A stretch of DNA of 64,000 nucleotides from assembly GCA_951406725.2 (NCBI GenBank), contig OX597814.1, positions 133,176,001-133,240,000 on the forward strand, read 5' to 3'. The translations under genes were made by a program, and so were the position numbers. Origin of the DNA: Octopus vulgaris. Its lineage: Eukaryota. This document shows, piece after piece, positions 8,688 through 54,499 of the stretch. Position 1 is the first letter of the stretch. Each line of letters starts with the position of its first letter. Below the pieces are notes generated by a model, which saw only the letters and a list, made by a program, of their open reading frames with translations, was not told the origin of the DNA and did not search any database.

Positions 8688-9830
8688 ATATACATATATA
8701 TATACATAAATACTTATACATATATATATATACATGTATAAATATATACGCGCACTAACATTAAACTATTTTTCTATAGTCAATATAAGGTGAGGACTTA
8801 GCGTAGTAGTTTCTTCAGTTCCATCTTGATTTTAATCTCACCATAAACATTTTTTCTTGCTCTAAATTCAAAAGGACCTGATTATCGACTTCCTCTCCAT
8901 TCTAGTGAAATAACTGTCCTCGAATAACATCACCCGTTCTAAACATCCGCTCTTTTAAAACAAGTTTAGTGGTTTCTGTTATTGTTTGTATAGCTTCAAC
9001 CATGAATGAACTAAAATTATAATATTAAAATATTAGATTTTTTCCAAACAATACTCATGTCGCTGGCTGTTGTCTAAATCATGAACATTAGAAATTTTGA
9101 AATGTATTCTGACTTTTAAAGTTCTTTAATTTTTCGTAAGGTCAGTTATACTCCCTCCAGTTATTTCTTCACTAGCTGGTGAAATATTTTTGGAAGATGT
9201 GATCAAACAATTCCCAGTGGCTGTAGTAGCAATGTTGTATTCAGTGGCCAATGTACAGATGGATCTAATATTTTAACTCAAACCACCAGCCAATTGTAGG
9301 TGAAGCATCTGGAGCATGGTTTACAATTTCATGAAGAATGTGATTAAAATGTTTTAAAATCTGAATTCAAAGCCTCGCTAAAGTTTTCGGCCTCTTCAAT
9401 TAATCACCAATAAGGATTTTATAAGCTAATAAATATTTGGAATTTTTTATGAACCGATAGGAAATACTTGCTGAACTTTTAGGAGCGAATAGATTCCTGG
9501 TCGAATGCAGTGACCTATGTGGCTTCACCCCTTACAGTCGTATTCGCACTTCTGCCCTGTAACCCTGAGGTTGCTTTGAACCTCATGAATCATTCAAAAT
9601 TTCCACAAAGTATTTCGGCACTTTATATCCCAGTCCTGTTTTCGGCTTTCTTTTCATTTCTGCAACCAAAGTTACAGTATTCATTTCGATAGTAATTAGA
9701 TGTAATAGAATTCAATATCGATTGCAATATTCGATCGAAATTGACAACATTCAATTTCAATCATTGCAGTATTTATACTTGCCATTATTTGGAAATTCGA
9801 TTGTACAGCAGGTTTTACTTATTGCATATA

Positions 9831-11461
9831 CAGATGCCGCCAAAATGTTCATAACGGCATTGTTTTCGTCAGAAAAGAAGGTACAATTTTTTATCAAAGT
9901 TGTTTTATATTCTATAATTTTCACAGAGAATAAATACGATATCATTTGTTATTGTCTGAGATTCTGGTGTAATTTGAGAGGATAATACAAAAGTTATGGA
10001 TGATTTAGTGATTTACTGCAAAAGCCGTACCGGCCAAAATGATCAGAACGGTTGAAAAAATAACAAAATAATCAAAAATGACAGAGAATACTGGAATTAT
10101 TTAATATTTAGCGTGAAGCCCTTTAGCTTCAATCACACTTTGACATCTTCGATTGCATGAGGAAACTAAATTTACAATGTCTTGCTGGGTGATCTTATTC
10201 AAGTTTCTTCCTGATAGGCATTCCATAATTACTCGGTTGTTTTAGGATTTCTGGCTTTCGAACGTTCTCCTAGAATATTCCACACATTTTCAATAGGATT
10301 GAGATCCGGGCTTTGAGCAGGCCAATCCATAACAATAACCTTTTCAGCCTTGAGGAAGTTCATGACCACTTTAGCCTTGTGACATGGGGCATTGTTCCGC
10401 ATGAATATGGATGGTCGCTTAGTTGAATTTCTCAGCACAGGCAAGACATGATCTTTTACAAGTTGTTTATAAACTCCTGCATTTTACTTTCCATGTAATC
10501 GCACCAAAGGGCCCACACCATGTCCAGATATCATCCCCCAAACCATGACACTTCCTCCACTGAATTTAACACTAGTCTTAAGGCATTTAGTCGACAATTT
10601 TTCACCTACTTTTCTACGAACGTACCTTTTCCCATCTGAGCCAAATAACATAGACTTAGATTCATCACTGAAATGCACCGTTTGTCATTTTTCTTGAGAC
10701 CACAACACATGTTCGGTTGCAAAGGTAAGACGACACTTTTTATTCTTGAAGCTGATCAGTGGCTTCACTGCAGGTGCTCTTGCTTGTAGGTCATGTTCAA
10801 CTAAACGACGAGACACAGTTTTTCGAGATAAATTTTTCTTCAGTACAATGCTCATTTCCCGAGAAACAGCAGCAGCAGTTTTAAATCTGTCCTTTTTAAC
10901 CAACTTTATCATAGCACGATCTTCTCTCTTGGTCATTTTTCTTGGTCTACCTGAAGACATTCTTGCTTCACACGAACCACAATCATCGTAGACCTTAATA
11001 ATACCATGAACAACACTTTTTGACTTGTTAACAATCTTTTCAATAGACCCAATAATTAAATTATCCTTCTTTCGAAGTTTAATAATCTGCTGACGAATTG
11101 GTAACGGAGTAAGTGGCATTATATAAACAAAGTACACTGCAGATATTCTTACTAATGTTTAGTAAACGAGCCGTCAAGTAAACAAATTCAAAACATTAGA
11201 GTTCGCCGGTTCAATATACTAAAGCACGGAGTAAACGCAACCGTTCTGATCATTTTAGCCGCCATGGGTTTTGAAGTAAAGCATTAAATCATCCCTGACT
11301 TTTGTATTATCCTCTCAAATTACACCAAAATCGTAGGCAATAACAAATAATATCGTATTTATTGTCTGTAAAAATTATAGTATATAAAACAAATTTGATA
11401 AAAAATTATACCTACTTTTCTGACGAAAACAATGCCGTTCTGAACATTTTGGCCGCAACTG
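9831..11461 (-). mobile_element. Complete Tc1-family DNA transposon with ~225-bp IR/DR-type TIRs and TA TSD
   Basis: TA|CAGATGCCGCCAAAATGTTCATAACGG... at the left end and ...CCGTTCTGAACATTTTGGCCGCAACTG|TA at the right; TIRs 9831-10054 and 11238-11461; transposase inside. Confidence 0.95.
10101..11119 (-). pseudogene. Tc1 (DD34E-type) transposase, disrupted
   Basis: MPLTPLPIRQQII...SGRPRKMTKREDR (paired HTH and GRPR), HFSDES, VMVWGMIS, FMRNNAPCH (second D changed to N), WPAQSPDLNPIENVW, ...IEAKGLHAKY*; in-frame stops and a frameshift. Confidence 0.92.
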
Positions 11462-11842
11462 TAAGTCTTTCTGATCTGATTTTTTCTGAGGTTCTTCAGT
11501 AGCATAGTCTCAGACTCTTTTACCTCTGCCAGTGTGATTTTTTTTTAACAGTAAGACTTTCATTAACAGTAAGACTTTGCAATTTGACTGTAAGAAATAA
11601 ATATTATTGTTGTTTTTTTTTTCGTATGCTACAATATTCCACTTTTTGTAAACATTCTCGTAAAATAATGCTGCGGTACTCAGTATTTATGACCAATAAT
11701 TATATAATGAAGAGTTGGAGACCACCCTACCCAATTAAAACAGTTTCGGAAAAAACTACTCAAGAATTTATACGGTTATTAATAATGAATACAAAACCCA
11801 CAAACACGGAATGCATTATGCAATATTTCTGTCTATTTTGTA

Positions 11843-15311: not shown

Positions 15312-17280
15312 CCGTATTTGACGGCATATTAGACGCACTGGCATATTAAACGCACCCTCATTTCAGTAGGTCAAATTCAGGAAAAAATGTTTTAAGTGTA
15401 TTTAAGCATATATTGTTGATAGCAGTCTAGCAGCACATTACAAAAGCAGAAAACGTTGCTGTATAAAAGCAAGCATACAAAAGGAAAGCATACAAATTAC
15501 AATAGTAATCATCTTTAATCATCTTTTTAACCAGAAAACTCTTCATCATCTTCTACACCAGAAAAGTCTTCATCATCTTCAAAACAAGGAACATCTTCAT
15601 CACTACTGCTGAAATCACTGTCTTGAAATAATGCATCATATTCTGTGCCATGAAGGGTATTGCTAATGCCACACTTCTTAAAAGCCTTCACAATGATTTC
15701 AGGCCTAACATCATCCCAAGATTTCTTCACTCACTCACACACTTCAGCAATGGTGGGCCGCTTCATTCTTCCTGTGGGTGTGAGGGCATGATGTGGCTCT
15801 GCCATCCACTTGTTCCAATGTTCACGCATGTTCTGCTTAAATGGCTTATTCACAGACACATCTAAAGGCTGCAATTGGCTCGTCAGTCCACCAGGATTGA
15901 CAGCTAACTGCGTTTTCAATTCTCCCACCCTTTTTTTAATGGCTTCAGTTCTATGTGCTCTAAACTGATCTCAAACCAGAAGAGAAGGTTTTCTTAATAG
16001 TCCACCAGCACGCCTTGACCATATATTTTGTAACCACAGTTTCATTCCATTTTCGTCCATCCAGCCTTTTTCGTGAACATGAACTAGTACACCTCTTGGA
16101 ATTTTATCCTTAGGCTGAGTTTTTCTCTTAAATAGCAAAAGAGGTTGCAGTTTTATGCCATCAGCACAACAGGCCATAGCTACTGTATAGTGGGTCTTTT
16201 CGTGGCCAGTGGTTTTTATCGAAACAATTTTAGACCCTTTGACACTCACAGTCCTGTTGGATGGTACATCAAATGTGAGTGGAACTTCGTCCATATTCCC
16301 TATTTGGCCCAGTTTTCTTTCTTGCATTTATAACAAATCTATGAAAATCTAATATTTTTTCTTCATAATCAGCAGGCATTTTTTTGTGCAATGGATGCTT
16401 TTGTACGCATTGATAAACCCTTCCGTTTCATAAACCTGTAACACCAACCTTCTGTTCCTGCAAAGTTCTGTATCCCTCGTTGTTCTGCTACTCTCATGGC
16501 CTCATGAATTATCATTTTGGTAGATACACTTCTCCCTGAGTTTCTCTCATCAAGCACCCACGTTTTTATATCATCCTCAAGTTCTGGCCAATGTGGGGCT
16601 GTGCAACGAAGGTTATGTTTACCTTTCTGTGCTCTCATCAGCTGCTCTTCTTGCTGTCGCCAGACACGTATCACTTTTTATGTAGGTGGTGGCCCAAAAA
16701 CTCTTGCTGCTGCTCTATTTCCATGCTCCTTGTCATAATCTACCACTCGTAGTTTGTAGGAGATTTTGTAGCTTGACCTTTTTGCTGCCATAGCCGTGAG
16801 GGTGCTTGTACTGTTGTAGTGTGTTTTGTTATGATCATAAACTTTGTTGTACCAAGATATCCAACCTACCTCCGTATATACACGAACTCGCAACGATCAT
16901 GTGCATTCCGTAGTTTTACTCCTCACCGTCAGATGGCATCGTGTTAGGGTTCCGAACAGCTGATATTAGTAAACGTGTGTCATGGATCGCAGCCTAACAA
17001 TTTACGGTAGATTGCTTTGATTTTTACGATAATTCGTATTTTAAAGTAATAATACTGGTAATAATAATAATAATACTAGCAATAAAATAATGATGCATGA
17101 GTACGGAAAATATCATTAAGGCGTTAGCGTAGGTAGAAATACTTATCGTAAGCTAGGTTAGTGAGCGCCTGGGAGAAGATTAGCCTACGGGAGGGTCTTG
17201 ACTTCGCATATTAGACGCAGGGTGATTTTTTGAGCCAAATTTTTTGGAAAAAAGTGCGTCCTATATGCCGTCAAATACGG
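15312..17280 (-). mobile_element. Complete pogo/Tigger-like DNA transposon with 28-bp TIRs and TA TSD
   Basis: TA|CCGTATTTGACGGCATATTAGACGCACT ... AGTGCGTCCTATATGCCGTCAAATACGG|TA; subterminal GCATATTAGACGCA repeats; transposase inside. Confidence 0.95.
15527..16791 (-). pseudogene. POGK-like pogo transposase (Brinker-type DBD, CENP-B HTH, DDE_1), disrupted
   Basis: MAAKRSSYKISYKLRVVDY..HGNRAAAR; WPELEDDIKTWV..GWCYRFMKRKGLSMR; IGNMDEVPLTFD; KGWMDE; PGGLTSQLQPLDVSVNKPFK; AFKKCGISN plus acidic tail; stops and frameshifts. Confidence 0.92.
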
Positions 17281-20894: not shown

Positions 20895-23712
20895 GTGCAA
20901 AGATTGAAGCGTGTTTTGAATTAGATGATAACGTTACACTTGTGTTCAATCCTAATACGAAAATATCTTTGCGGCAATAAAGCAAGTGAATGATGAGCTG
21001 GATAGACTGAGGAAATGCGAATTGAGTAGCTCCTATTGTATGTATAAAAAACAAAAATATCGAAATTAGGTTTTGTGCCGATTTTTCGACCTGTTTAAAT
21101 TACTGTTTTAGAATGAACCATTATCCAGTATCGACCACAGAAGACATTTTTACAAAACGAAACAGAGGAAAAATATTTTCAAAATTCGATCTCTCTGATG
21201 CATGTCTACAAATCAAAGTAGTTTTTAAAAATGCTCCAAGCTGTTAAAAGTCAACACGCACAGAGGTCTATACAAATACAATAGCATACCTTTTGAACTG
21301 AAGATAGCAATATTTGGACTGAAGATAGCAATATTTCAACATGTGATGGCCGCGATGTTGGCAGACAGTCAGTTTGTTATTCCTTACCTTGATGTCATGT
21401 TAATCAAAAACGAATCGCGGCATGAGTATATTGAACCAGTGAAGTATGTCTTTATAAATTAAGGATTATGGTTTCACGCTAAGTGAAGAAAATTGTGAAT
21501 TAATTCTGCCTAAAAAGAAATACCTAGGTCAAATCATAAACAAGAATGGAAGACATCCTGACTCATCGAGAGCAGACGCGATCAAGAATATGCCTCCTCC
21601 AACGAATATACCGACATAATTTACTAAGTCAAGGAATGACCTAGTAAATTAATATAAAGTACATTCCAAATATACATAAATTGAGAGCACCATTACACGG
21701 TTTACTAAAAAAAAAGGAGAAAAATGGAATTGGTCTGTAAAGTCTCAAAACTCATTGGAAGACATAAAGAAAATACTAATTTCTGACTTGTCACTAACGC
21801 ATTTCGAACCTAGAATGGACATTGTTGTAGCGTCTGATGTTTCGGAGTATGGAATAGGAGCAGTCTTGCAACACAAGTATAAAGATGGAAATACGAAACC
21901 AGTAGTTCATGCTTCACGTTCGCTGACAGAAGCGGAAAAAAGTATAGTCAGATAGAGAAGGAGATTCTATCGATTATTATTGCGGTAATAAAATTTTAAA
22001 ACAATTTCTACATGGTATAAATCTTTTGTTACAAACCGACCATCGACCATTACTATAAATTTTTGGATCAAAGAAGGGATTCCCTATCTATACAGCAAAC
22101 CGACTACAACGCTGGGGTACAATATTGCTGAACTACAATTTCAAGATGCAGTATATTCTGTCGAACAAAATTGGTCATTCAGACTGCTTATCGAGGTTAA
22201 TTCCCAAGAGCGTGGAACCGCTAGAAGAGACCGTGATTGCGTCATTGCAGTCAGAAAAGGAAGTAAGAAGTATTGTGTATAATATAATCTAGGAACTACC
22301 TGTGACAGCGCATGATAAAAAATGAAATCCGTAGAGGACAGTTACATTACAAATATGAAAGAAACATTGAAAAATAAGCATAATAAAAATACAAATTCAA
22401 ATAATTTCTCATTATTCGACGATGTCTTAATCTACGCGCAGAGAGTAGTAGCATCAAGTGCACTACAGAAACGTGTATTGCAACAATTCCATTGTGGCCA
22501 CCCGGGAATGTCCAGAATGAAAGACTTAATAAGGAGCTTTGTATATTGGCCGACTACAGACAGGGACATGGAGAAATTGGGGAAAGCATGTAGAGGTTGC
22601 GCGTTGGCAACCAAAGCACCACCTGTAAAATACCAATCGTGGCCGGAGATTCAGAGCCCATTATCCAGAATACATATCGACTACGCTGGACTAGTGAACG
22701 ACGCATACTATTTAATCGTTGTGGATAGCTATACAAAGTGGCCAGAGGTATGCAGATGTAATAAACCCACAGCCAAGACAACAAAGTTTCTATTTGAGTT
22801 ATTTGCTCCAAACGGTGTTCCAGAGATGTTAGTATCTGATAATAGGACACAATTCACGGGATAACAATTCAGAAATTTCTGTAAAGTACATGCCATAAAG
22901 CTCATCTTTACTCTGCCCTATCACCCGGGGTCAAATGGGTAAGCGGAAAGATTTGTCGACACGTGCAAAAGAGCACTGAGAAAAGCTAGGGAGGAACTAG
23001 ATAATGACAAGGCGCGAAAGAAATTTTTCTGCCTGTATAGAATAACGCCAAATCCAAATACTAATTAAGGAAAGTCACCACCCAAGTTAATGTTCGCACG
23101 TAAAAAACATCGATCGTCGATGAATTATTGCCAGCAAATAATATATATAAAGGCAAGACAAAAATATTTTTGTAGGAAATACAAGAAATATTACAAAACA
23201 TTTCGAAGTTCATTTTAAAGGTTACAAAAATGGTAAAGAAAGTTGGGAGGATGGCTCTGTAATCAAAAGATTTAGTAACATGATGTATTTAATTAAAGGA
23301 CAACATTCGGAACACAAGAGACAACTTAACCAGGTAAAGCTGAGACATACAGAAGAATGAAGGGTGATACCAATAGAAGTTTTCTATTATACGTTTGAAG
23401 TGCCAGCACCGAGAGATATTGAACCACGTAGAACTAGCTTCAGAAAACGAAAACAGACTGAATATCTGGAAATTATACCTAAACGAAATATATATATTAA
23501 ATTTTCAAACAAATGGATACTTACAAGAGTGCTTAGTACAACGAAAAGAAAAAGTGCTATGTGCAACGAACAATACCACCTTAAGAGTCGGGTAACAATT
23601 GAGATTCAATAACTAAAAAAAAAGAGGGGGGAGAGGTGCTGGAAAATAAAATAAAATTAAGATAAAAGAAATTCCCCTTTCTCACATTAATCGAAATCTC
23701 AAGAGGGGCGAG
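20895..23712 (+). mobile_element. Decayed Ty3/Gypsy LTR retrotransposon pol region (RT-RNaseH-integrase) with PPT
   Basis: Broken frames give IRFCADFS, IFSKFDLSDA (RT); VVASDVSEYGIGAVL, HASRSLTEAEK, LQTDHRPL (RNase H); HCGHPGMSRMK..FVYWP..C..C, RIHIDYAG, VVDSYTKWPEV, LVSDNRTQF, PYHPGSNG*AERFV (integrase); polypurine tract 23615-23636 followed by TG. Confidence 0.9.
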
Positions 23713-23781
23713 ATAGACTGGTCCGAGTAAATTATAAATAGCAACGATCCACGTGAGTTCAGAGTTCGGAGTCGAGTGAAG

Positions 23782-25345
23782 TTCCAGTCGTACATGTGTT
23801 GTACTAAACGTTAGTTAATGTTTAAAGTTGCTGTTAAAATTGTTGTTGGTTAAATTGTTGGTTGTTTTGTGCTGATTTAGCAGCGGTTTAAAGTTGTGCT
23901 TTCTCTCGAGAATATCGAGAGATAAGCAACAAGAATGTACTATTCGAAACTTAGCGGTTCCGGATTTTCCTCTTCGGAAGAGGTGTTGGTTCGTGCAGTC
24001 GAAAGGATGGATAAAGTTCTAGAAACGAAAAGTTTTGCAGAGTCGGTGGAGGTAGACCTCTCCAACTTGGAAAGTTACGGAAGAATGGCAACCAGAATAG
24101 GTGGTAACGTTAAGTTGTCACCATCCCAGAAGAAAATGGAACAGATTGACAGAAAATCTGTGATATACAAAGTATACTCGATGTAAAACAGGAGAACTGA
24201 ACATGTGGAAGAAAAGATCATTGAAAAGGCATTGTACTCGGTCTGGCCAGAGGGAGTAAATTTGGATCCATAATAGTATTATTCAAGTCGGAAGCAAAGC
24301 AATAGAGAACGCAACGAGAACAATAAAAACAGATAAAATGGTCCTTCTAACTACATATATGGGAAGAAGGACGTCAAGGATAAGAATGGAAGGAATTCCA
24401 CCAGAAACTGATGTGGCTTGGGTCGTGGCGGCTATTCTCCTGGGTAGCAGGAAGGAGATGACCATCCTCCAAGCCACAAAATCGACGGCTCTGTGTGGAA
24501 GGGACAGACAGTCGACCTGATTATACAAGCTGTGGTGGAGACACTGGAAAATTTTGTTGAGACAGTGTCAATTGGTGAACTGGTATTGAAAGTGTGGGTA
24601 GAGAGCAGGACTCCACGCTGTTTTAAATGTGGCCAGTAAGGCCACATTAGAGCACACTGCTTTCTACAAAAGCGAACAACAGAAGAAATGCCGGAAAAGA
24701 AGCAAGAGGAGGAAAAACAAAAAAAGAGGAAAGAGAGGAAGAATGGAAAGTGGCAGAGGGAAACAGGAAAAAGAGAAAAAGTGTAATGTGGAACCCCAAA
24801 CCTTGGCCACCCCACCCATAACATCTGAGACTCCTCCTCCCCCTACAGACACCGAACCCACCCATTCCACTCCTAAACATGCTAAAAAAAAAGAATCGCA
24901 GAAACAACAAAGCACAAACAATTGCCTTCCCCATAAAGTAAACTACGCTTGCATGATATCGGACAAGGGCAATAAGGGGCTAATCGGGATGGTAACGGGT
25001 TGAAAGACAGCAAGATTGGTGTGTACAGATGGATATCAGAACATAATATGGTGGAATATGTGTACTCTATTTCCAGAAGGACAGATGGAGCAAGTGAAGA
25101 AATATAAAAAAATATGAAACACTACTAGCGAAATATGGTATCGACGTGATAAAGGGACTCACAAGGAAGTAAGTGTTGCTGCTCGACGTGGGGCGAGCAG
25201 CAAATTTCCATATTTTCATTTTCGTTATTCATTTCATATAAGCATATAATTTTATTTGAATTTTATTTATTTTTTTTGTGTTATATGTCCCCACATGTGC
25301 TTGTATTGTCACCTCTTTGTTGGCCTCTTGTGGGCAATAAAGAAA
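23782..25345 (+). mobile_element. Non-autonomous ORF1-only retroposon (HAL1-like) with >=15-bp TSD
   Basis: TSD CGGAGTCGAGTGAAG at 23767-23781 and 25352-25366; ends ...CCTCTTGTGGGCAATAAAGAAA; single decayed Gag-like frame and no EN/RT motifs. Confidence 0.75.
23935..25140 (+). pseudogene. LINE ORF1/Gag-like protein with CCHC zinc knuckle, disrupted
   Basis: ATG at 23935; YMGRRTSRIRMEGIPPE (RRM-like strand, inferred); RTPRCFKCGQ*GHIRAHC at 24619-24660 fits CX2CX4HX4C; K/E-rich and P/T-rich tail. The 3' limit is approximate. Confidence 0.7.
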
Positions 25346-26626
25346 CAGGTCCGGAGTCGAGTGAAGCTCATGTTAGTTCGCAGTGAAATCGGATGGTGTC
25401 AGTTGGTTATCTCACAAGGAATATTGATTCTTGGTTCGTAAAGAGATTTGTTAGTTCGTTACATTACTTTTGCTGTTGTCTGGCTATCATATTTATTGTA
25501 CGTAACAAATTACGTTATACCAGTGGCGATAGTCATAGTTCGGACGAATTGGAGAAATAAGCAGATCCTTCCTGAATGGCGTCTGTGTTCCCAAGGCTTG
25601 AGATTGCCAGTGAGTATACAGTGGCGAGCTGTGACAGGGTACTTCTTTAGGGTATTGAAGATAAAAAAATAACAAAGCGGTCACCAAACTGAAACCCGTT
25701 GTATTTACCCATACATTCCTTAGAGAATCGCCTTCTTTCTTCCATCAGCAGAAGTCATTGTAAATAAAATAGATGTAGAATTTATGATGATTTTCATATC
25801 GAGGTCACTGATATTGGTAAATTTTCAACCAAAATCTAAAGCACTCAAGTGGCGTGGAATTTCAATATCGATGTGCAGAAATCCACATTATTGATCTGGA
25901 TGAAGCTGCAGACTCCCTTATATTTAATACGTAACATGGACAAATCACAGAAATGCAATTTATATTTCCATTTATGCTTTAAATTTCAAATAAAACACGT
26001 TTCTAAAAACAGCTGTCATGAAAGGAGATTCCAAACAGAATATTGAGAAGGACAGAAGTAAGGTAATAGATGAAGGAGAAAAAGGAAAACAATCAATTAT
26101 CGATTATGGCTGTTTCTGAACTATAAAAGAAATATATTTCGTGTTGCCTGGTTACGCAGTCATGCAGTCGTTAGTTGTTAGCGGGATTTTCAGCTGGTGA
26201 GTCCCAAAAGACATTGAAGTCTTTAAAAAGTTTACTATGGACTGAACTGGCCACTAGTGATTTAGTCCATAGCAACGCTCACTCAAGGCTGACTTGACTA
26301 TAAAGATACAGTGTTTAGGAGTGTCGTAGATCAGAGAAAGAGAGTTAGAGAGTAAATTTACAAAATATTGAATATGCAATTCTTTACATAGAGATCTGTA
26401 CATTTTTAATTTCTGCTTACAAATATTTCTTCCAATAATATTGATTTCTAACATCGGTACGAACTGCACAGTTTCACACAAACACACACACACACACACA
26501 CGAGTATATGAGCGTGAAAATGTGTGTACGCGTGTGAGTGCGCATGTGTATGTATTTGTGTGTCTGTGTGTGAATGTGGGTGTATAGATATTATAGACAT
26601 ATTGCCATAGATGGATAAAATATATT

Positions 26627-27416
26627 CGAGAGGGTACCCAAAAGAAACCGGAATGATTTTATTCACTTAGTTTTTACATGTTTACACATTTTCTCACCTT
26701 CAAAGTATTCTCCATTTGAAGCAACGCATCGGTCCATTGTTCGAAGCAGGGCTGGATCTCTTGCGAAGTGATGTCTTTTAACACGTCTGTCGTTTTTTCT
26801 TCATTTCTTCCACATCTGCAAATTCCGTAGCACAGCTGTCGTAACCAGAGATGACCTTCAGAAAAAGGTCCGGATCAACTTCAGACTGTTCTTTCAGTTC
26901 ATAACACGCATTCAATTGTGACTGCTTTTTTTCTTCCGTGAATGATTTTGCTGCAACACTTTTCATTCACAATTCCTCTCTCAAATTTCGTTGGCAGGCA
27001 GTCCAGGACACACAAGTCATATAAAAAAATTCGTCAATTGTTCGGTGATGATCCTTCAAGATCAGTTCATGAATTTTTGTGATGTTTTCATTCGTTCGGG
27101 TGGTCAATGGTGTCCTTGAACGAGGTTGTTCTTCAGGCAACAAGTCACCATTCCTAAAATGGTAAAACCATTCGTAAACTTGTGTTTTGCTCATGGCAGC
27201 GTCCTTGTAAGCTGTTTGAAGCTTGACAGCTGTTTTGTTGGCCGCTTTCCTCAGCGGAAAACAGAATTTCAGGGAAGGATGCTATTCCTTCGTTTCAGCC
27301 ATCGCAAAAATCGACAGACAGAGGAAAACCACTACAAAACAATGACGTACCACGTGGCAGTACGACTTAGGCGGACGACGCCGGTAGGTAGACTGAAGTC
27401 TGACATTGTTATTTGA
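26627..27416 (-). mobile_element. Internally deleted mariner relic
   Basis: ATG at 27302; MSKTQVYEWFYHFRNGD...PRSRTP..RTNENITKIHELI; LFLKVISGYDS (first D region) joined directly to the C-terminal RCVASNGEYFE. Confidence 0.8.
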
Positions 27417-45637: not shown

Positions 45638-46054
45638 AAGGCGGCGAGCTGGCAGAAACGTTAGCACGCCGTGCAAGACGCTTAGCTGTATTTCGTCTAC
45701 TGTTACGTTCTGAGTTCAAATTCCGCCGAGGTCGACTTTGCCTTTCATCCTTTTGGGGTCGATAAATTAATTACCAGTTACGCACTGGGATCGATATAAT
45801 CGACTTAATCCGTTTGTCTGTCTTTGTTTGTCCCCTCTATGTTTAGCTCCTTGTGAGTAGTAAAGAAATAAGTATCTCGTCTGCCGCTACGTTCTGAGTT
45901 CAAATTCCGCCGAGGTCGACTTTGCCTTTCATCCTTTCGGGGTCGATTAAATAAGTACCAGTAATGCACTGGGGTCGATATAATCGACTTAATCCGTTTG
46001 TCTGTCCTTGTTTGTCCCTTCTGTGTTTATTCGCTTGTGGGTAGTAAAGAAATA
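45638..46054 (+). mobile_element. Dimeric tRNA-like SINE (head-core-tailA plus partial head-core-tailA) with 17-bp TSD
   Basis: GGCGGCGAGCTGGCAGAAACGTTAG head, B-box-like GAGTTCAAATTCC, core CCTTTCATCCTTTCGGGGTCGAT; TSD GGTATATAATCTGGTAG at 45621-45637 and 46055-46071. Confidence 0.92.
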
Positions 46055-47025
46055 GGTATATAATCTGGTAGTTGAGGTTATATAAATCAGTAGTTACTGT
46101 GTTAGAACGGAAGAACAAATTACACAAAAGTGTTCGTAAAAATGCATATATGCAAATATTCTTGTATATATTTTTGTCCAATGCGTCATGTACAGAGAAT
46201 GTGTTAAGTAAAGTATATTTGAATTGTATTCCTTCCTTTTCGTAGCAGCACGAAAAGCAAGTTACCGTTTTCGGTAAAACTAGTTCTACACATGTTTCAT
46301 ATTTAGAAATAGCTGAACCAACAGTTTCTTTCAACGGTGAGATTTTGTTTAATGGAGGACGTGTCACCATAAAGTGTGGTAGCTTATAGCTGCAATATCA
46401 TAGTTGACATGTGAGCTGCATAACTGATATTTGCCATAATAACTCTTGTAATGTTAAGATACAAAGGGAAGTGGACATTTCTTAAGCTGATGGTGAAAAT
46501 TCCCTAATAGTAATTGAACTATCCGACTTGTAACCCACCAGGACAGTCTATGGAATAACAAGACTTCTAGGTATAGTATAGAGAAGCAAAAGATTCCTTT
46601 TCATATTATATACTGTACCTATAGCAGTTCATTGTTTGATTCATTCCATTTTTCATATAATAGTGTCTATTACAGTGGTAGTACGGAATATCCAATCGAG
46701 AATATGGCTGGAGAGGATCTCTCCTGCGAAACGTCTTCGACATATAATTTTCTTTAAAAATGAAATATTTTTCATAGAAGTATAACTTTTCTCCTCAAGA
46801 AAGTGACAATGCCATTCTTCATCAGCATATTAACGGAAGTAATGCTGCTGGTAATTCGTGGTCAAAACGTAGGCCTGTTGTTGACGGTATACAAATTCAA
46901 TTGTTAAATGAAATGTATGGATGCAAGTTCGTATCGTTTGCACGTTGCATATGTCGTTTTCCTTTAAAATGTAAGCCAAAGTATCACTACTATTTCATTG
47001 GTATGACAATGCCTAGTATTTACTG

Positions 47026-47425
47026 AGGCGGCGAGCTGGCAGAAACGTTAGCACGCCGGGCGAAATACCTAGCCGTATTTCGTCTGTCGTTACGTTCTGA
47101 GTTCAAATTCCGCCGAGGTCAACTTTGCCTTTCATCATTTCGGGGTCGATTAAATAAGTACCAGTTACGCACTGGGTTCGATATAATCGGCTTAATCCGT
47201 TTGTCTGTCCTTGTTTTTCCTCTGTGTGTTTAGCCCCTTGTGGGTAGTAAAGAAATAGGTATTTTGTCTGTCTTTAAATTCTGAGTTCAAATTCCACTGA
47301 GGTCGACTTTGTCTTTCATCTTTTCGGGGTCGATAAATTAAGTACCAGTTGCGTGCCGGCGTCGATCTAATCAACGGGCCCCTTCACCCAAAATTTCGGG
47401 CCTTGTACCTAGTGTAGAAAAGAAT
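47026..47425 (+). mobile_element. Chimeric SINE dimer (head-core-tailA plus partial head-core-tailB)
   Basis: Same head and core as 45638; first unit ends AGCCCCTTGTGGGTAGTAAAGAAATA (47257), second ends AAATTTCGGGCCTTGTACCTAGTGTAGAAAAGAAT. Confidence 0.9.
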
Positions 47426-51199: not shown

Positions 51200-51332
51200 C
51201 TCCTTTGTTATTATGGATACCGAATACTATAAGCATTTGGTTGAGGACCAACTGAAGGACACAACCTTCTATTGTGAAATACCCTCAAATATAGACCACC
51301 ACATCATGAAAAAGATCAACAACCTGAAAGCC

Positions 51333-51569
51333 AGTATATAAATAAAGAAACCTTTTAGGTAAATTTTACAAATTATTCTATAATTATGTACATACTTACA
51401 ACAACGGATCTGCTATGTGCCTCGCCGCGTATGGTAGTAAAAAAGACGTTAGCGTCTATTTCTAATTCAGTATGTGGTGAGGCACATAGCTGACCCGTTG
51501 TTATAATTATGTATATAATTATAGAATAATTGGTAAAATTTACCTGAAAGGTTTTTTATTTATGTACTG
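51333..51569. repeat. Fold-back palindrome with ~100-bp arms and ~37-nt spacer
   Basis: 51333-51432 pairs with 51470-51569, with about a dozen differences. Confidence 0.92.
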
Positions 51570-51615
51570 TCTACCAGGTAAAATTATAAGTAATTTTACC
51601 CTATATTATTAACAT

Positions 51616-52203: not shown

Positions 52204-52714
52204 GAGCGAGAAAGAGTGAGACAGAGAGACACAAAGAGAGCAAGTTATAGTAGCCATTCCTCTGGCTTCTTGCTCACTTCTGCATACAGCAGCGACCATC
52301 CCATATCGTCTATCTTTTTGCATGTGTAGCACTAGGGACTACACATCTTCAAAGCATTTTTCAGTTTCTGCCGGAGTAGGAAACTGAGGTTTCCTCTCAT
52401 TGCGAGAGACACATTTATAAAAAAATGGTTCCTCTTTCGGAGTATTTTCCCTCCTCACTAAGGCGCATAATACCTGGTTTCATAATGTCACTCTTGTATT
52501 TCAGAGCCTTAATTTTATTAGTCATCCACTGAAAAAATAGCCCAATTGCTAACGACTTTAGAAAAGGAAGTAGCTTTGTTATTATTGCTGCTCCTGCTAT
52601 TGTTCGTGGTGATGGTGGTGTCGTTGTCGTCGTCGCTGTTCTTTTCAATCGTATTGTTCATGTTACTTTTTTTGTTTTCGATTTTGTTCATCAATGTTGT
52701 TGATACAGTTGCTG

Positions 52715-53552
52715 GGATCTTTTCTGTTTGATGGACGGAATTTTCTAGTTAACTAAACAATTTGAAACTTCGTATACTGGTAGAATGTGTCAAAAGAAAA
52801 CATTATTGTAAGCAAAATTGAAAACAAAATTGTAATTCGTAACTTTAACGTAGTTTAATTCTACGAATTTTAACCAATGAAATTGCAGCATTCGAGCTCA
52901 AATTATTTGTTGCGTCTAAAAACTCACACGCACACGTCTTATTCATCCTTTCTCTCTCTTCTGTCTACATGTGCTAGAAATAACAGCTATATCTCTTAAA
53001 TCGATGAATTTCGTCGCCCAATAAAAATATTAACGATATATTTTGAATATTTCCTTTAATTTTTTTTACCGAAAAGGCTTCTCCCATGGTTTTGAAGGGC
53101 CAGAAACAACAAAAACAAAACAATAATATGCCTAAATCGGTCTAGAGTTTGCGCGTGGAGTGTGATTCGTATTATTTTTATTTTTTATTTTATCTAGTTT
53201 CAGCTCACGAGCTTTGGCTATTCTGGGGCACCGCCATTTGTAAAAATTTGCGAAATATTTTTTCATAAAAGGATGCCCCAGCTTGTCGGAAGCTGTGATA
53301 TAAGTTGTGAAAAAAATCCTCGACACCAGTGCGTAATTGGTACTTAATTTATCGACCCCGAAACGATGAAACATTGACCCCCCCTTCTAGTTTATTTACT
53401 TTTTGTGTAAATCTGTTACAGCATGGGGCAACTCACGAAAGTGTATGTATGCTTGTGTGCGTATGTGTGTGCATGTATATGTCCGTTTGTATGTGTGTGT
53501 ACGCTTATATATTAATTACTATGTGCTTGTGCAAATGTATATGCATGTGTTT

Positions 53553-53586
<34 letters not shown>

Positions 53587-53591
53587 GAGTG

Positions 53592-53644
<53 letters not shown>

Positions 53645-53868
53645 TGCGTCTGCTATATTTCTTTATCAATATCGATAACGCAGCAATGCTGGGGTTTCAT
53701 TGGTTAAAATTCGCAAAATTAAACTACGTTTAAGTTACAAATTACAATTTTGTTTTCAATTTTGTATACAATAATGTTTTTGTTTTTTTTTGACACATTC
53801 TACCAGTATACGAAGTTTCAAATTTTTTAGTTAACTAGAAAATTCCGTCCATCAAACAGAAAAGATCC
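52715..53868. mobile_element. Non-autonomous long-TIR DNA element (MULE- or Merlin-like) with 9-bp TSD
   Basis: About 175-bp TIRs starting GGATCTTTTCTGTTTGATGGACGGAATTTTCTAGTTAACTAAA (52715-52891 / 53686-53868); TSD CAGTTGCTG at 52706-52714 and 53869-53877; SINE scraps and microsatellites inside. Confidence 0.88.
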
Positions 53869-54499
53869 CAGTTGCTGTTATTGTTGTTATTTCTGCTGTT
53901 TGTGGTGGTGGTGGTGATGCTGCTGCTGCTGCTGCTAATGTAGTCTTCCTCATCAGTATCTTTGCTGCTGGTACATTTGTTACTGACGTCATAGCAACAA
54001 TGGGAAATTATATTTCTCTTTGTTGAGAAATTTATTTCACCTTCAGCTGCGTTTCTGTCCGAAATTATAACTGAACGCTGGTAGGAGTCAAAAGAACGGT
54101 GCAATAGAACGCTGGTAGGAGTCAATAGAAAGGTCAACAGAACTGTGCAAAATCTTACCGCTACAATACGAACAATGCAAGCAAAATACTTGTTAAATAA
54201 AATTTTCAATAAACGTGTCTCAACCAGCTGAGATACTTGATTAAGCATTTACAAATAACGGAGGTTCAACATCTATAATATAATGGAGAAAGCTAAAAGA
54301 AAGCAATTATTAATGGGTTGACCGTCTGCAAATATTTTTTTATAAATTCATGTTCTAAGAAATGTCCTATAATTTCGATTTCTCAAGTTTATTAAACTTT
54401 TTAGCTACAACTTCTCGCAAATTTAATATTCATTGCATTCGCTGCGTTCAATTTTCACAAATTTAAATATTCATAGTATTCACTGCAGAGTATTCAGAA

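Follow-up and report, generated by a model that had tools for sequence, protein, structure and literature searches.

The window (the whole stretch of 64,000 nt analyzed here) contains a dead copy of an ORF1-only retroposon, whose family likely borrows the EN and RT of an L1-group LINE through a common 3′ tail without poly(A). The copy lies 30 nt downstream of the TATA box of a host LTR, where transcription of this LTR is predicted to begin. The evidence comes from the window itself and from other loci of the same 2.8-Gb genome, which are labeled with L-numbers.

Layout and decay of the window copy

An initial annotation had delimited the element by an exact 15-bp direct repeat. This repeat is real: the window has two exact matches to the 15-mer and no more, at 23767 and 25352. 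It is probably the core of a TSD of 19–21 nt (23763-23783 and 25348-25368), because in the closest copy, L002, the TSD at this LTR base is 21 nt long. The 3′ TSD copy at 25348-25368 has mismatches. The unit and its host are arranged as follows.

22319..22864, +: integrase-like ORF fragment from the host LTR retrotransposon; in L043, this protein is again found downstream of the LTR
23710..23762, +: what remains of the U3 of the host LTR (LTR-A), from the alignment with L002, which begins at 23710, and with empty LTRs
23733..23740, +: TATA box TATAAATA, read from the sequence, its first T 30 nt before the TSD start
23763..23783, +: 5′ TSD copy (exact core 23767-23781), where LTR transcription is predicted to start
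23784..23934, +: GT-rich 5′ UTR of the ORF1-only unit, kept in other copies
23935..25172, +: decayed ORF1 with two predicted RRMs, a CCHC knuckle, a charged/Pro-rich linker and a C-terminal domain
24619..24660, +: CX2CX4HX4C knuckle, interrupted by an in-frame stop; relatives match zf-CCHC, though below the Pfam cut-off
25283..25347, +: 3′ tail, common to the LINE (83% over 66 nt); its last ~48 nt are also found in SINE A
25348..25368, +: 3′ TSD copy (exact core 25352-25366), same LTR target site
25369..25517, +: remainder of the host LTR (R/U5), with 84–89% matches at ≥39 other places (332 candidates)

The ORF1 of the window copy is broken by in-frame stops at 24184-24186 and 24637-24639, the second of them inside the knuckle, and also by frameshifts; the fold assigned to it was transferred from an intact relative, L096. 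Within the tail there is a 4-bp hairpin (25323-25335) followed by AATAAA (25336-25341), and the tail terminates in AATAAAGAAA with no poly(A). Between the TSDs no EN/RT similarity was found except for one 10-aa HSP to the LINE ORF2 region, in agreement with the earlier statement that the unit encodes neither endonuclease nor RT. We assume the host LTR retrotransposon to be of the Gypsy type.

Elsewhere in the window, Tc1/mariner-type transposase pieces are present at 15971-16677 (−) and 26967-27281 (−), which we take to be pogo-like and mariner-like, respectively. Inverted repeats of 190–260 nt (9829-11463, 51322-51579 and 52712-53871) are probably MITE-like elements or inverted repeat copies.

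The host LTR as a repeated target

The downstream flank of the unit matches a multi-copy LTR. Among 30 loci of this LTR, 26 are empty at the insertion site and four (the window, L002, L120 and L122) hold a tail-bearing element; further insertions at the same site were found in L140, L300 and the upstream unit of L044. The ORF1 pieces of L122 are only 33–46% identical to the window-type query, and the tail of L120 differs (the upstream junction of the L120 insertion was not found). A TATA-like match occurs in 25 of the 26 empty loci. In three of the occupied loci (the window, L002 and L122), the distance from the first T of TATAAATA to the TSD start is ~30 nt; in L140 it is 31 nt, despite a different TSD sequence.

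We also considered whether the direct repeat might be an LTR-like or Penelope-like terminal repeat. This reading was rejected, as empty LTRs have the 15-mer once. Tails located upstream of ORFs are not terminal repeats either, since they belong to other units.

The ORF1-only family

A DNA search of the genome with the window unit produced at least 64 matches, many of them near full length, with 66–83% identity (605 candidates, 40 scored). TSD-bounded units of the window's family span 1557–1687 nt, and intact relatives have a single ORF of at most 499 codons. The ORF1 of these units is under purifying selection: in the RRM-knuckle core, the median dN/dS is 0.28 over 171 pairs and the value is below 1 in 169 of them. 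When the window copy is compared with 18 others over the same core, dN/dS ranges from 0.14 to 0.84 and does not exceed 0.33 in 15 cases; the value of 0.84, obtained against the nearest copy, is expected from decay after insertion. The genome-wide survey of copies thus upholds the original proposal of an ORF1-only (HAL1-like) retroposon, in that its relatives are units of similar length (1.5–1.7 kb) with their own TSDs, no RT and dN/dS below 1. The opposite case, in which the other copies are full LINEs and the window copy is a unique deletion, did not hold.

A quickly built tree of 178 ORF1 cores has a single branch (support 97) that splits 137 ORF1-only rows from 41 LINE rows, the latter collected with a single query; the window copy, whose ORF1 falls into two pieces, was left out. 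This split makes the ORF1-only units look like an old radiation. Of the single Gag-only satellite postulated initially, the ORF1-only nature stands, but there are many ORF1-only families instead of one. ORF1 pieces of the units and of the LINE show 32–65% protein identity, and this identity, together with that of the tail (83% over 66 nt), traces both the ORF1 and the 3′ end of the units to an L1-group LINE. A poly(A) tail is a feature of L1 derivatives. The tails of the units end in a few A-rich bases directly followed by the TSD, without the poly(A) that a strict definition of mammalian HAL1 demands; one array unit carries a longer A run.

A clade of ~1470-nt ORF1-only units (41 rows) is found mostly at one fixed site in a second SINE. 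Its members (L133, L141, L145, L239, L250, L256, L264 and others) have an altered tail, insert ~22–25 nt inside this SINE, and share a few bases between their 3′ end and the target. A young ORF1-only family (L331, L332, L334, L335 and L338) uses one insertion base just before CTGACGAG, a motif which we take to be hammerhead-like, and has no TATA upstream. ORF1-only units of different branches (L151, L265 and L279) lie 9–13 nt into the SINE A head; two of these three flanks have a TATA-like word at -29/-30.

The ORF1 protein

The structural model of L096 (mean pLDDT 58, mostly ~80 in the core) contains two tandem RRMs, with a Foldseek match to IMP3 RRM1-2 (E 1.9e-5) and a match to La (VIA Z 9.2, rmsd 2.4 over 81 residues). 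As modeled, this pair of RRMs indicates that the protein is a LINE ORF1p and not a retroviral Gag. The initial description of a decayed Gag-like protein is therefore kept with regard to the decay and the knuckle, but not with regard to the Gag label. Named homologs are fish proteins with ZCCHC3-type RBDs; in the profile comparison of ORF1 with a fish ZCCHC3-type ORF1, the match is limited to the knuckle.

The partner LINE

An RT fragment adjoining one of the unit copies was used as a query and gave 141 scored matches; in many of these, a frame of 1132 aa is open. This ORF2 includes APE, RT and zf-RVT domains. Among solved structures its best match is human L1 ORF2p (E 3.6e-71), R2 being far weaker (1e-24). 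The LINE encoding it is 5.3 kb long and ends in a poly(A)-less tail like that of the window unit; the tail was present at the expected place in the first 20 stretches and then in 51 of 60 further loci. We consider this L1-group LINE with the 1132-aa EN-RT to be active, and intact young copies of both the LINE and ORF1-only units are present in the genome. The initial annotation had envisaged a three-part system in which an unseen autonomous LINE, the satellite and a SINE rely on one tail. The LINE with the shared tail has now been found, and a single RT would serve all three.

The partner LINE has a Tx1-type architecture (APE, RT and a C-terminal zinc finger in ORF2, RRMs and CCHC in ORF1) and a Tx1-type target preference, namely, few recurrent targets at fixed bases; its Tx1 label rests on this architecture and target habit. 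The commonest target of the LINE (L083, L088-L090, L228 and L233) is a repeat with a decayed ORF1 fragment, a 3′ hairpin and CTAG, presumably a Helitron-like 3′ end. Thirteen recently active L1-Tx1 families have been reported for O. vulgaris, in a paper whose available text does not mention ORF1 (PMC13282606).

SINE A and the shared tail

The same tail is found in SINE A, represented in the window by two features.

45639..46067, +: SINE A with a head and two body-tail units; 20-nt TSD on both sides
47026..47270, +: another copy of SINE A, also with this tail

For each of the three SINE copies of the tail, the alignment score with the tail of the window unit was reached by none of 5000 dinucleotide shuffles, and across the whole window the score was reached by 1 of 200 shuffled tails. 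The tail alignment reported initially is thus significant against shuffled controls, with two corrections in detail: the GTGGG assigned to the copy at 45825 reads GTGAG, and the match to the copy at 47210, although real, has a best local alignment that spans the last 26 nt only. The tails of SINE A and the LINE match at 77.6% over 49 nt.

The predicted 4-bp stem of the SINE tails is paired in 14–16 of 16, without a two-sided change, and two divergent tail types, picked by eye, retain the stem with changed pairs. The small hairpin of the initial annotation is consistent with these data but can only be suggested, as RNAalifold predicted no consensus structure over 62 unit tails.

Among 61 SINE A heads, 25 have a tail at most 700 nt away, and 10 of these 25 have a TSD of 11–21 nt, the same range as in the LINE. 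TATAWA is located upstream of one of the 10 TSDs compared with 7 of 140 background windows. In this small sample of 10 TSDs, SINE A has the tail and the TSD length in common with the LINE, but not the targeting. An Rfam search with SINE A gave no tRNA match; its head contains words that we take to resemble tRNA-promoter A and B boxes. At L047 (3782-4040), two tandem SINE A copies have one shared spacer, like LINE trains.

Insertion sites relative to TATA boxes

TATAAA occurs at -43..-26 in 8 of 26 independent first-insertion targets but in just 7 of the 364 windows taken as background (Fisher 6e-7), in an interval picked after inspecting this first set and in a sample that is not random, since most targets are other repeats. 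The reverse-strand TATAAA is found in the same position in only one of the 26 targets. The other 18 targets are without strict TATAAA in this interval; many have one-mismatch variants and some have nothing. The test was then fixed before new loci were fetched. From the resulting 18 rows we dropped four seen before, four further copies of one seen target and two duplicates of one new target, while two more rows in a previously seen repeat were counted apart. Three of the six new targets have TATAAA in the interval, compared with 1 of 84 background windows (Fisher 7e-4); with the two rows counted apart, the figure is 3/8. TATAWA is present in four of the six, and the remaining two have TATA-like words at -28 and -29. 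No consensus among the TSD sequences was seen on inspection.

The TATA distance is -27 to -32 for most ORF1-only units and for an 1148-aa LINE, and -38 to -42 for the 1132-aa LINE. The commoner distance (~30 nt) is the canonical TATA-to-start spacing. Because of the two distances, the 1132-aa LINE is probably not the direct partner of the window unit. The second-SINE site used by the ~1470-nt clade has no consistent TATA. At the same promoter-like repeat (L184 versus L344; L233 versus the C1 array), the 1132-aa LINE lies ~39 nt and the ORF1-only units ~29 nt after the TATA, an offset of one helical turn.

Head-to-tail trains

Another tail is located just upstream of 72 of the 194 units, and of 5 of the 50 in a further set. 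Four long arrays ahead of a LINE comprise 12, 14 (5′ end open), 7 and 6 ORF1-only units, and one array consists of five LINEs. In older arrays of the window's family, one spacer is repeated after each tail, and the units are ~30% apart. One inner array spacer reproduces the final bases of the flank upstream, and the unit was therefore added at the 5′ junction. We propose that shared spacers, sliding spacers and the polarity of the trains all arise because insertion recurs at a set distance from a single TATA. Tail-directed self-targeting or a HeT-A-type tail promoter is unneeded, as first insertions have no upstream tail and trains grow at the 5′ junction.

Proposed mechanism and alternatives

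In the mechanism that we find most likely, the ORF2p of an L1-group LINE would recognize the tail in trans and start TPRT, and the RNP would owe its position to a complex on the TATA box, either TBP or the pre-initiation complex, and not to the sequence of the cut site. The new copy would then sit at the transcription start and be transcribed from the captured host promoter. Later insertions would recur at this distance from that TATA, pushing older units downstream and giving rise to trains. ORF1p might aid targeting; it is a candidate for such a role by analogy with HeT-A Gag at telomeres (PMC5537684). We infer the tethering, the promoter-driven transcription and the role of ORF1p; help from ORF1p in targeting would explain both the retention of ORF1 and the lack of bias in the SINE, from which ORF1 is absent. 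In its full form, the proposal is that a guild of elements docks on TATA-bound machinery at Pol II starts, with ORF1p doing the homing, ORF1-only units capturing promoters and stacking in dated trains, and the SINE borrowing only the tail. We advance this full form tentatively, as plausible though short of probable.

The ORF2 endonuclease, or another domain, might instead read a TATAAA-like word directly and cut 30 or 40 nt further on, in which case the match to the start site would be a by-product and no host factor would be needed. The distance is indeed specific to the LINE lineage (~-29 versus ~-39), degenerate TATA words also occur at the sites, and Tx1 target choice has been put down mainly to the endonuclease (PMC4494074). 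However, the motif is strand-specific, and SINE copies, which are expected to use the same ORF2p, are unbiased (1/10). As the commoner distance moreover coincides with the canonical TATA-to-start spacing, we find direct reading unlikely. RNA–DNA pairing, whereby the 3′ flank of a read-through transcript (the old TSD) primes at array spacers or wherever else the repeat occurs, could account for the presence of the window unit's spacer in its closest relatives (L002 and L004), for SINE TSDs that often start with letters matching the SINE end, and for the overlap between the end of the 1470-nt subfamily and its SINE target; cotranscription with the target has also been said to strengthen targeting (PMC4494074). 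Yet pairing does not predict an upstream TATA. It is also at odds with the occurrence of unrelated ORF1 lineages and LINEs at one target and of one lineage at many targets, with spacers that slide within a train, and with L228, which uses the same upstream flank with a different downstream sequence. We regard it as quite improbable.

It might also be argued that insertion is random, that hot spots were copied passively with the host LTR or the presumed Helitron-like repeat, and that trains arose through unequal crossing-over. The targets are repeats, and some trains contain near-identical runs of units; unequal crossing-over or passive copying may be behind such homogeneous runs. As a general explanation, however, this is hardly credible, being largely refuted by the presence of different unit families at one site. 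In addition, the window LTR is no nearer to that of L002 (86.7%) than to 29 others (mean 87.7%), neighboring units are often ~30% diverged, and contigs span the empty T1 site in three of four runs.

If placement by a TATA-bound complex is true, the octopus elements would be the LINE equivalent of Ty3 and a naturally occurring case of TPRT aimed at promoters. The LINE, the ORF1-only units and the SINE have the tail in common, whereas ORF1 and targeting set them apart, and the role of ORF1p in target choice therefore becomes testable, as does, in this three-part system, the question of why ORF1-only elements keep their gene. Insertions at transcription starts could silence or rewire LTR elements and genes in the large octopus genome.

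Comparison with known systems

Each part of the system has a precedent, but our literature searches found none for the positioning of a non-LTR element relative to TATA boxes or start sites, and no description of this octopus system.

Known ORF1-only derivatives are HAL1, HeT-A and Ag-Sponge (PMC5786205, PMC5753468). Like mammalian HAL1 (half-L1), the octopus units are a non-autonomous L1-group derivative with ORF1p only. They differ from it in that their ORF1 is of the two-RRM + CCHC type, poly(A) is absent, the 3′ tail is common to a LINE and a SINE, and insertion is site-biased, with trains and a deep radiation into many families (PMC5753468, PMC5786205).

Crocodilian Tx1 families favor other transposons, LTR elements included, and SINEU forms tandems around a TSD; the set compared here consists of Tx1-Mar with SINEU, and of Tx1-8_Crp and Tx1-4_AMi in LTR retrotransposons (PMC4494074). 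The octopus system resembles these Tx1-clade LINEs in its L1-group affiliation, transposon targets, passengers at the same target and TSD-sandwiching tandems, and transcription from flanking sequence has been proposed there as well (PMC4494074). However, each Tx1 family uses one target family or group, whereas the octopus targets are unrelated and have only the upstream TATA, at its fixed spacing, in common; unlike SINEU, the octopus passengers code for ORF1 (PMC4494074).

Drosophila HeT-A/TART/TAHRE likewise combine a Gag-only element, head-to-tail arrays and autonomous partners; HeT-A Gag directs targeting and HeT-A depends on an upstream promoter, for both of which we propose a counterpart in the octopus units (PMC5537684). 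Those elements belong to the Jockey clade, are telomeric and poly(A)-tailed, and have their promoter in the 3′ UTR of the neighbor, whereas the octopus arrays are interstitial, TSD-spaced and downstream of a host TATA box (PMC5537684).

Stringent L1-clade LINE/SINE pairs of maize, sorghum and Chlamydomonas have a common 3′ end, as in octopus, and a hairpin has been described for the monocot pair; the octopus system differs in being from an animal, in adding ORF1-only families and in having no poly(A) (PMC3747384). The closest parallel in placement is Ty3 at Pol III genes, where a TBP-containing complex positions the element at the transcription start, as the tether that we propose would do in octopus (10.1101/2021.07.27.453949). 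Ty3, however, is an LTR retrotransposon that relies on integrase and TFIIIB at Pol III genes, whereas the octopus elements are non-LTR elements at TATA boxes (10.1101/2021.07.27.453949).
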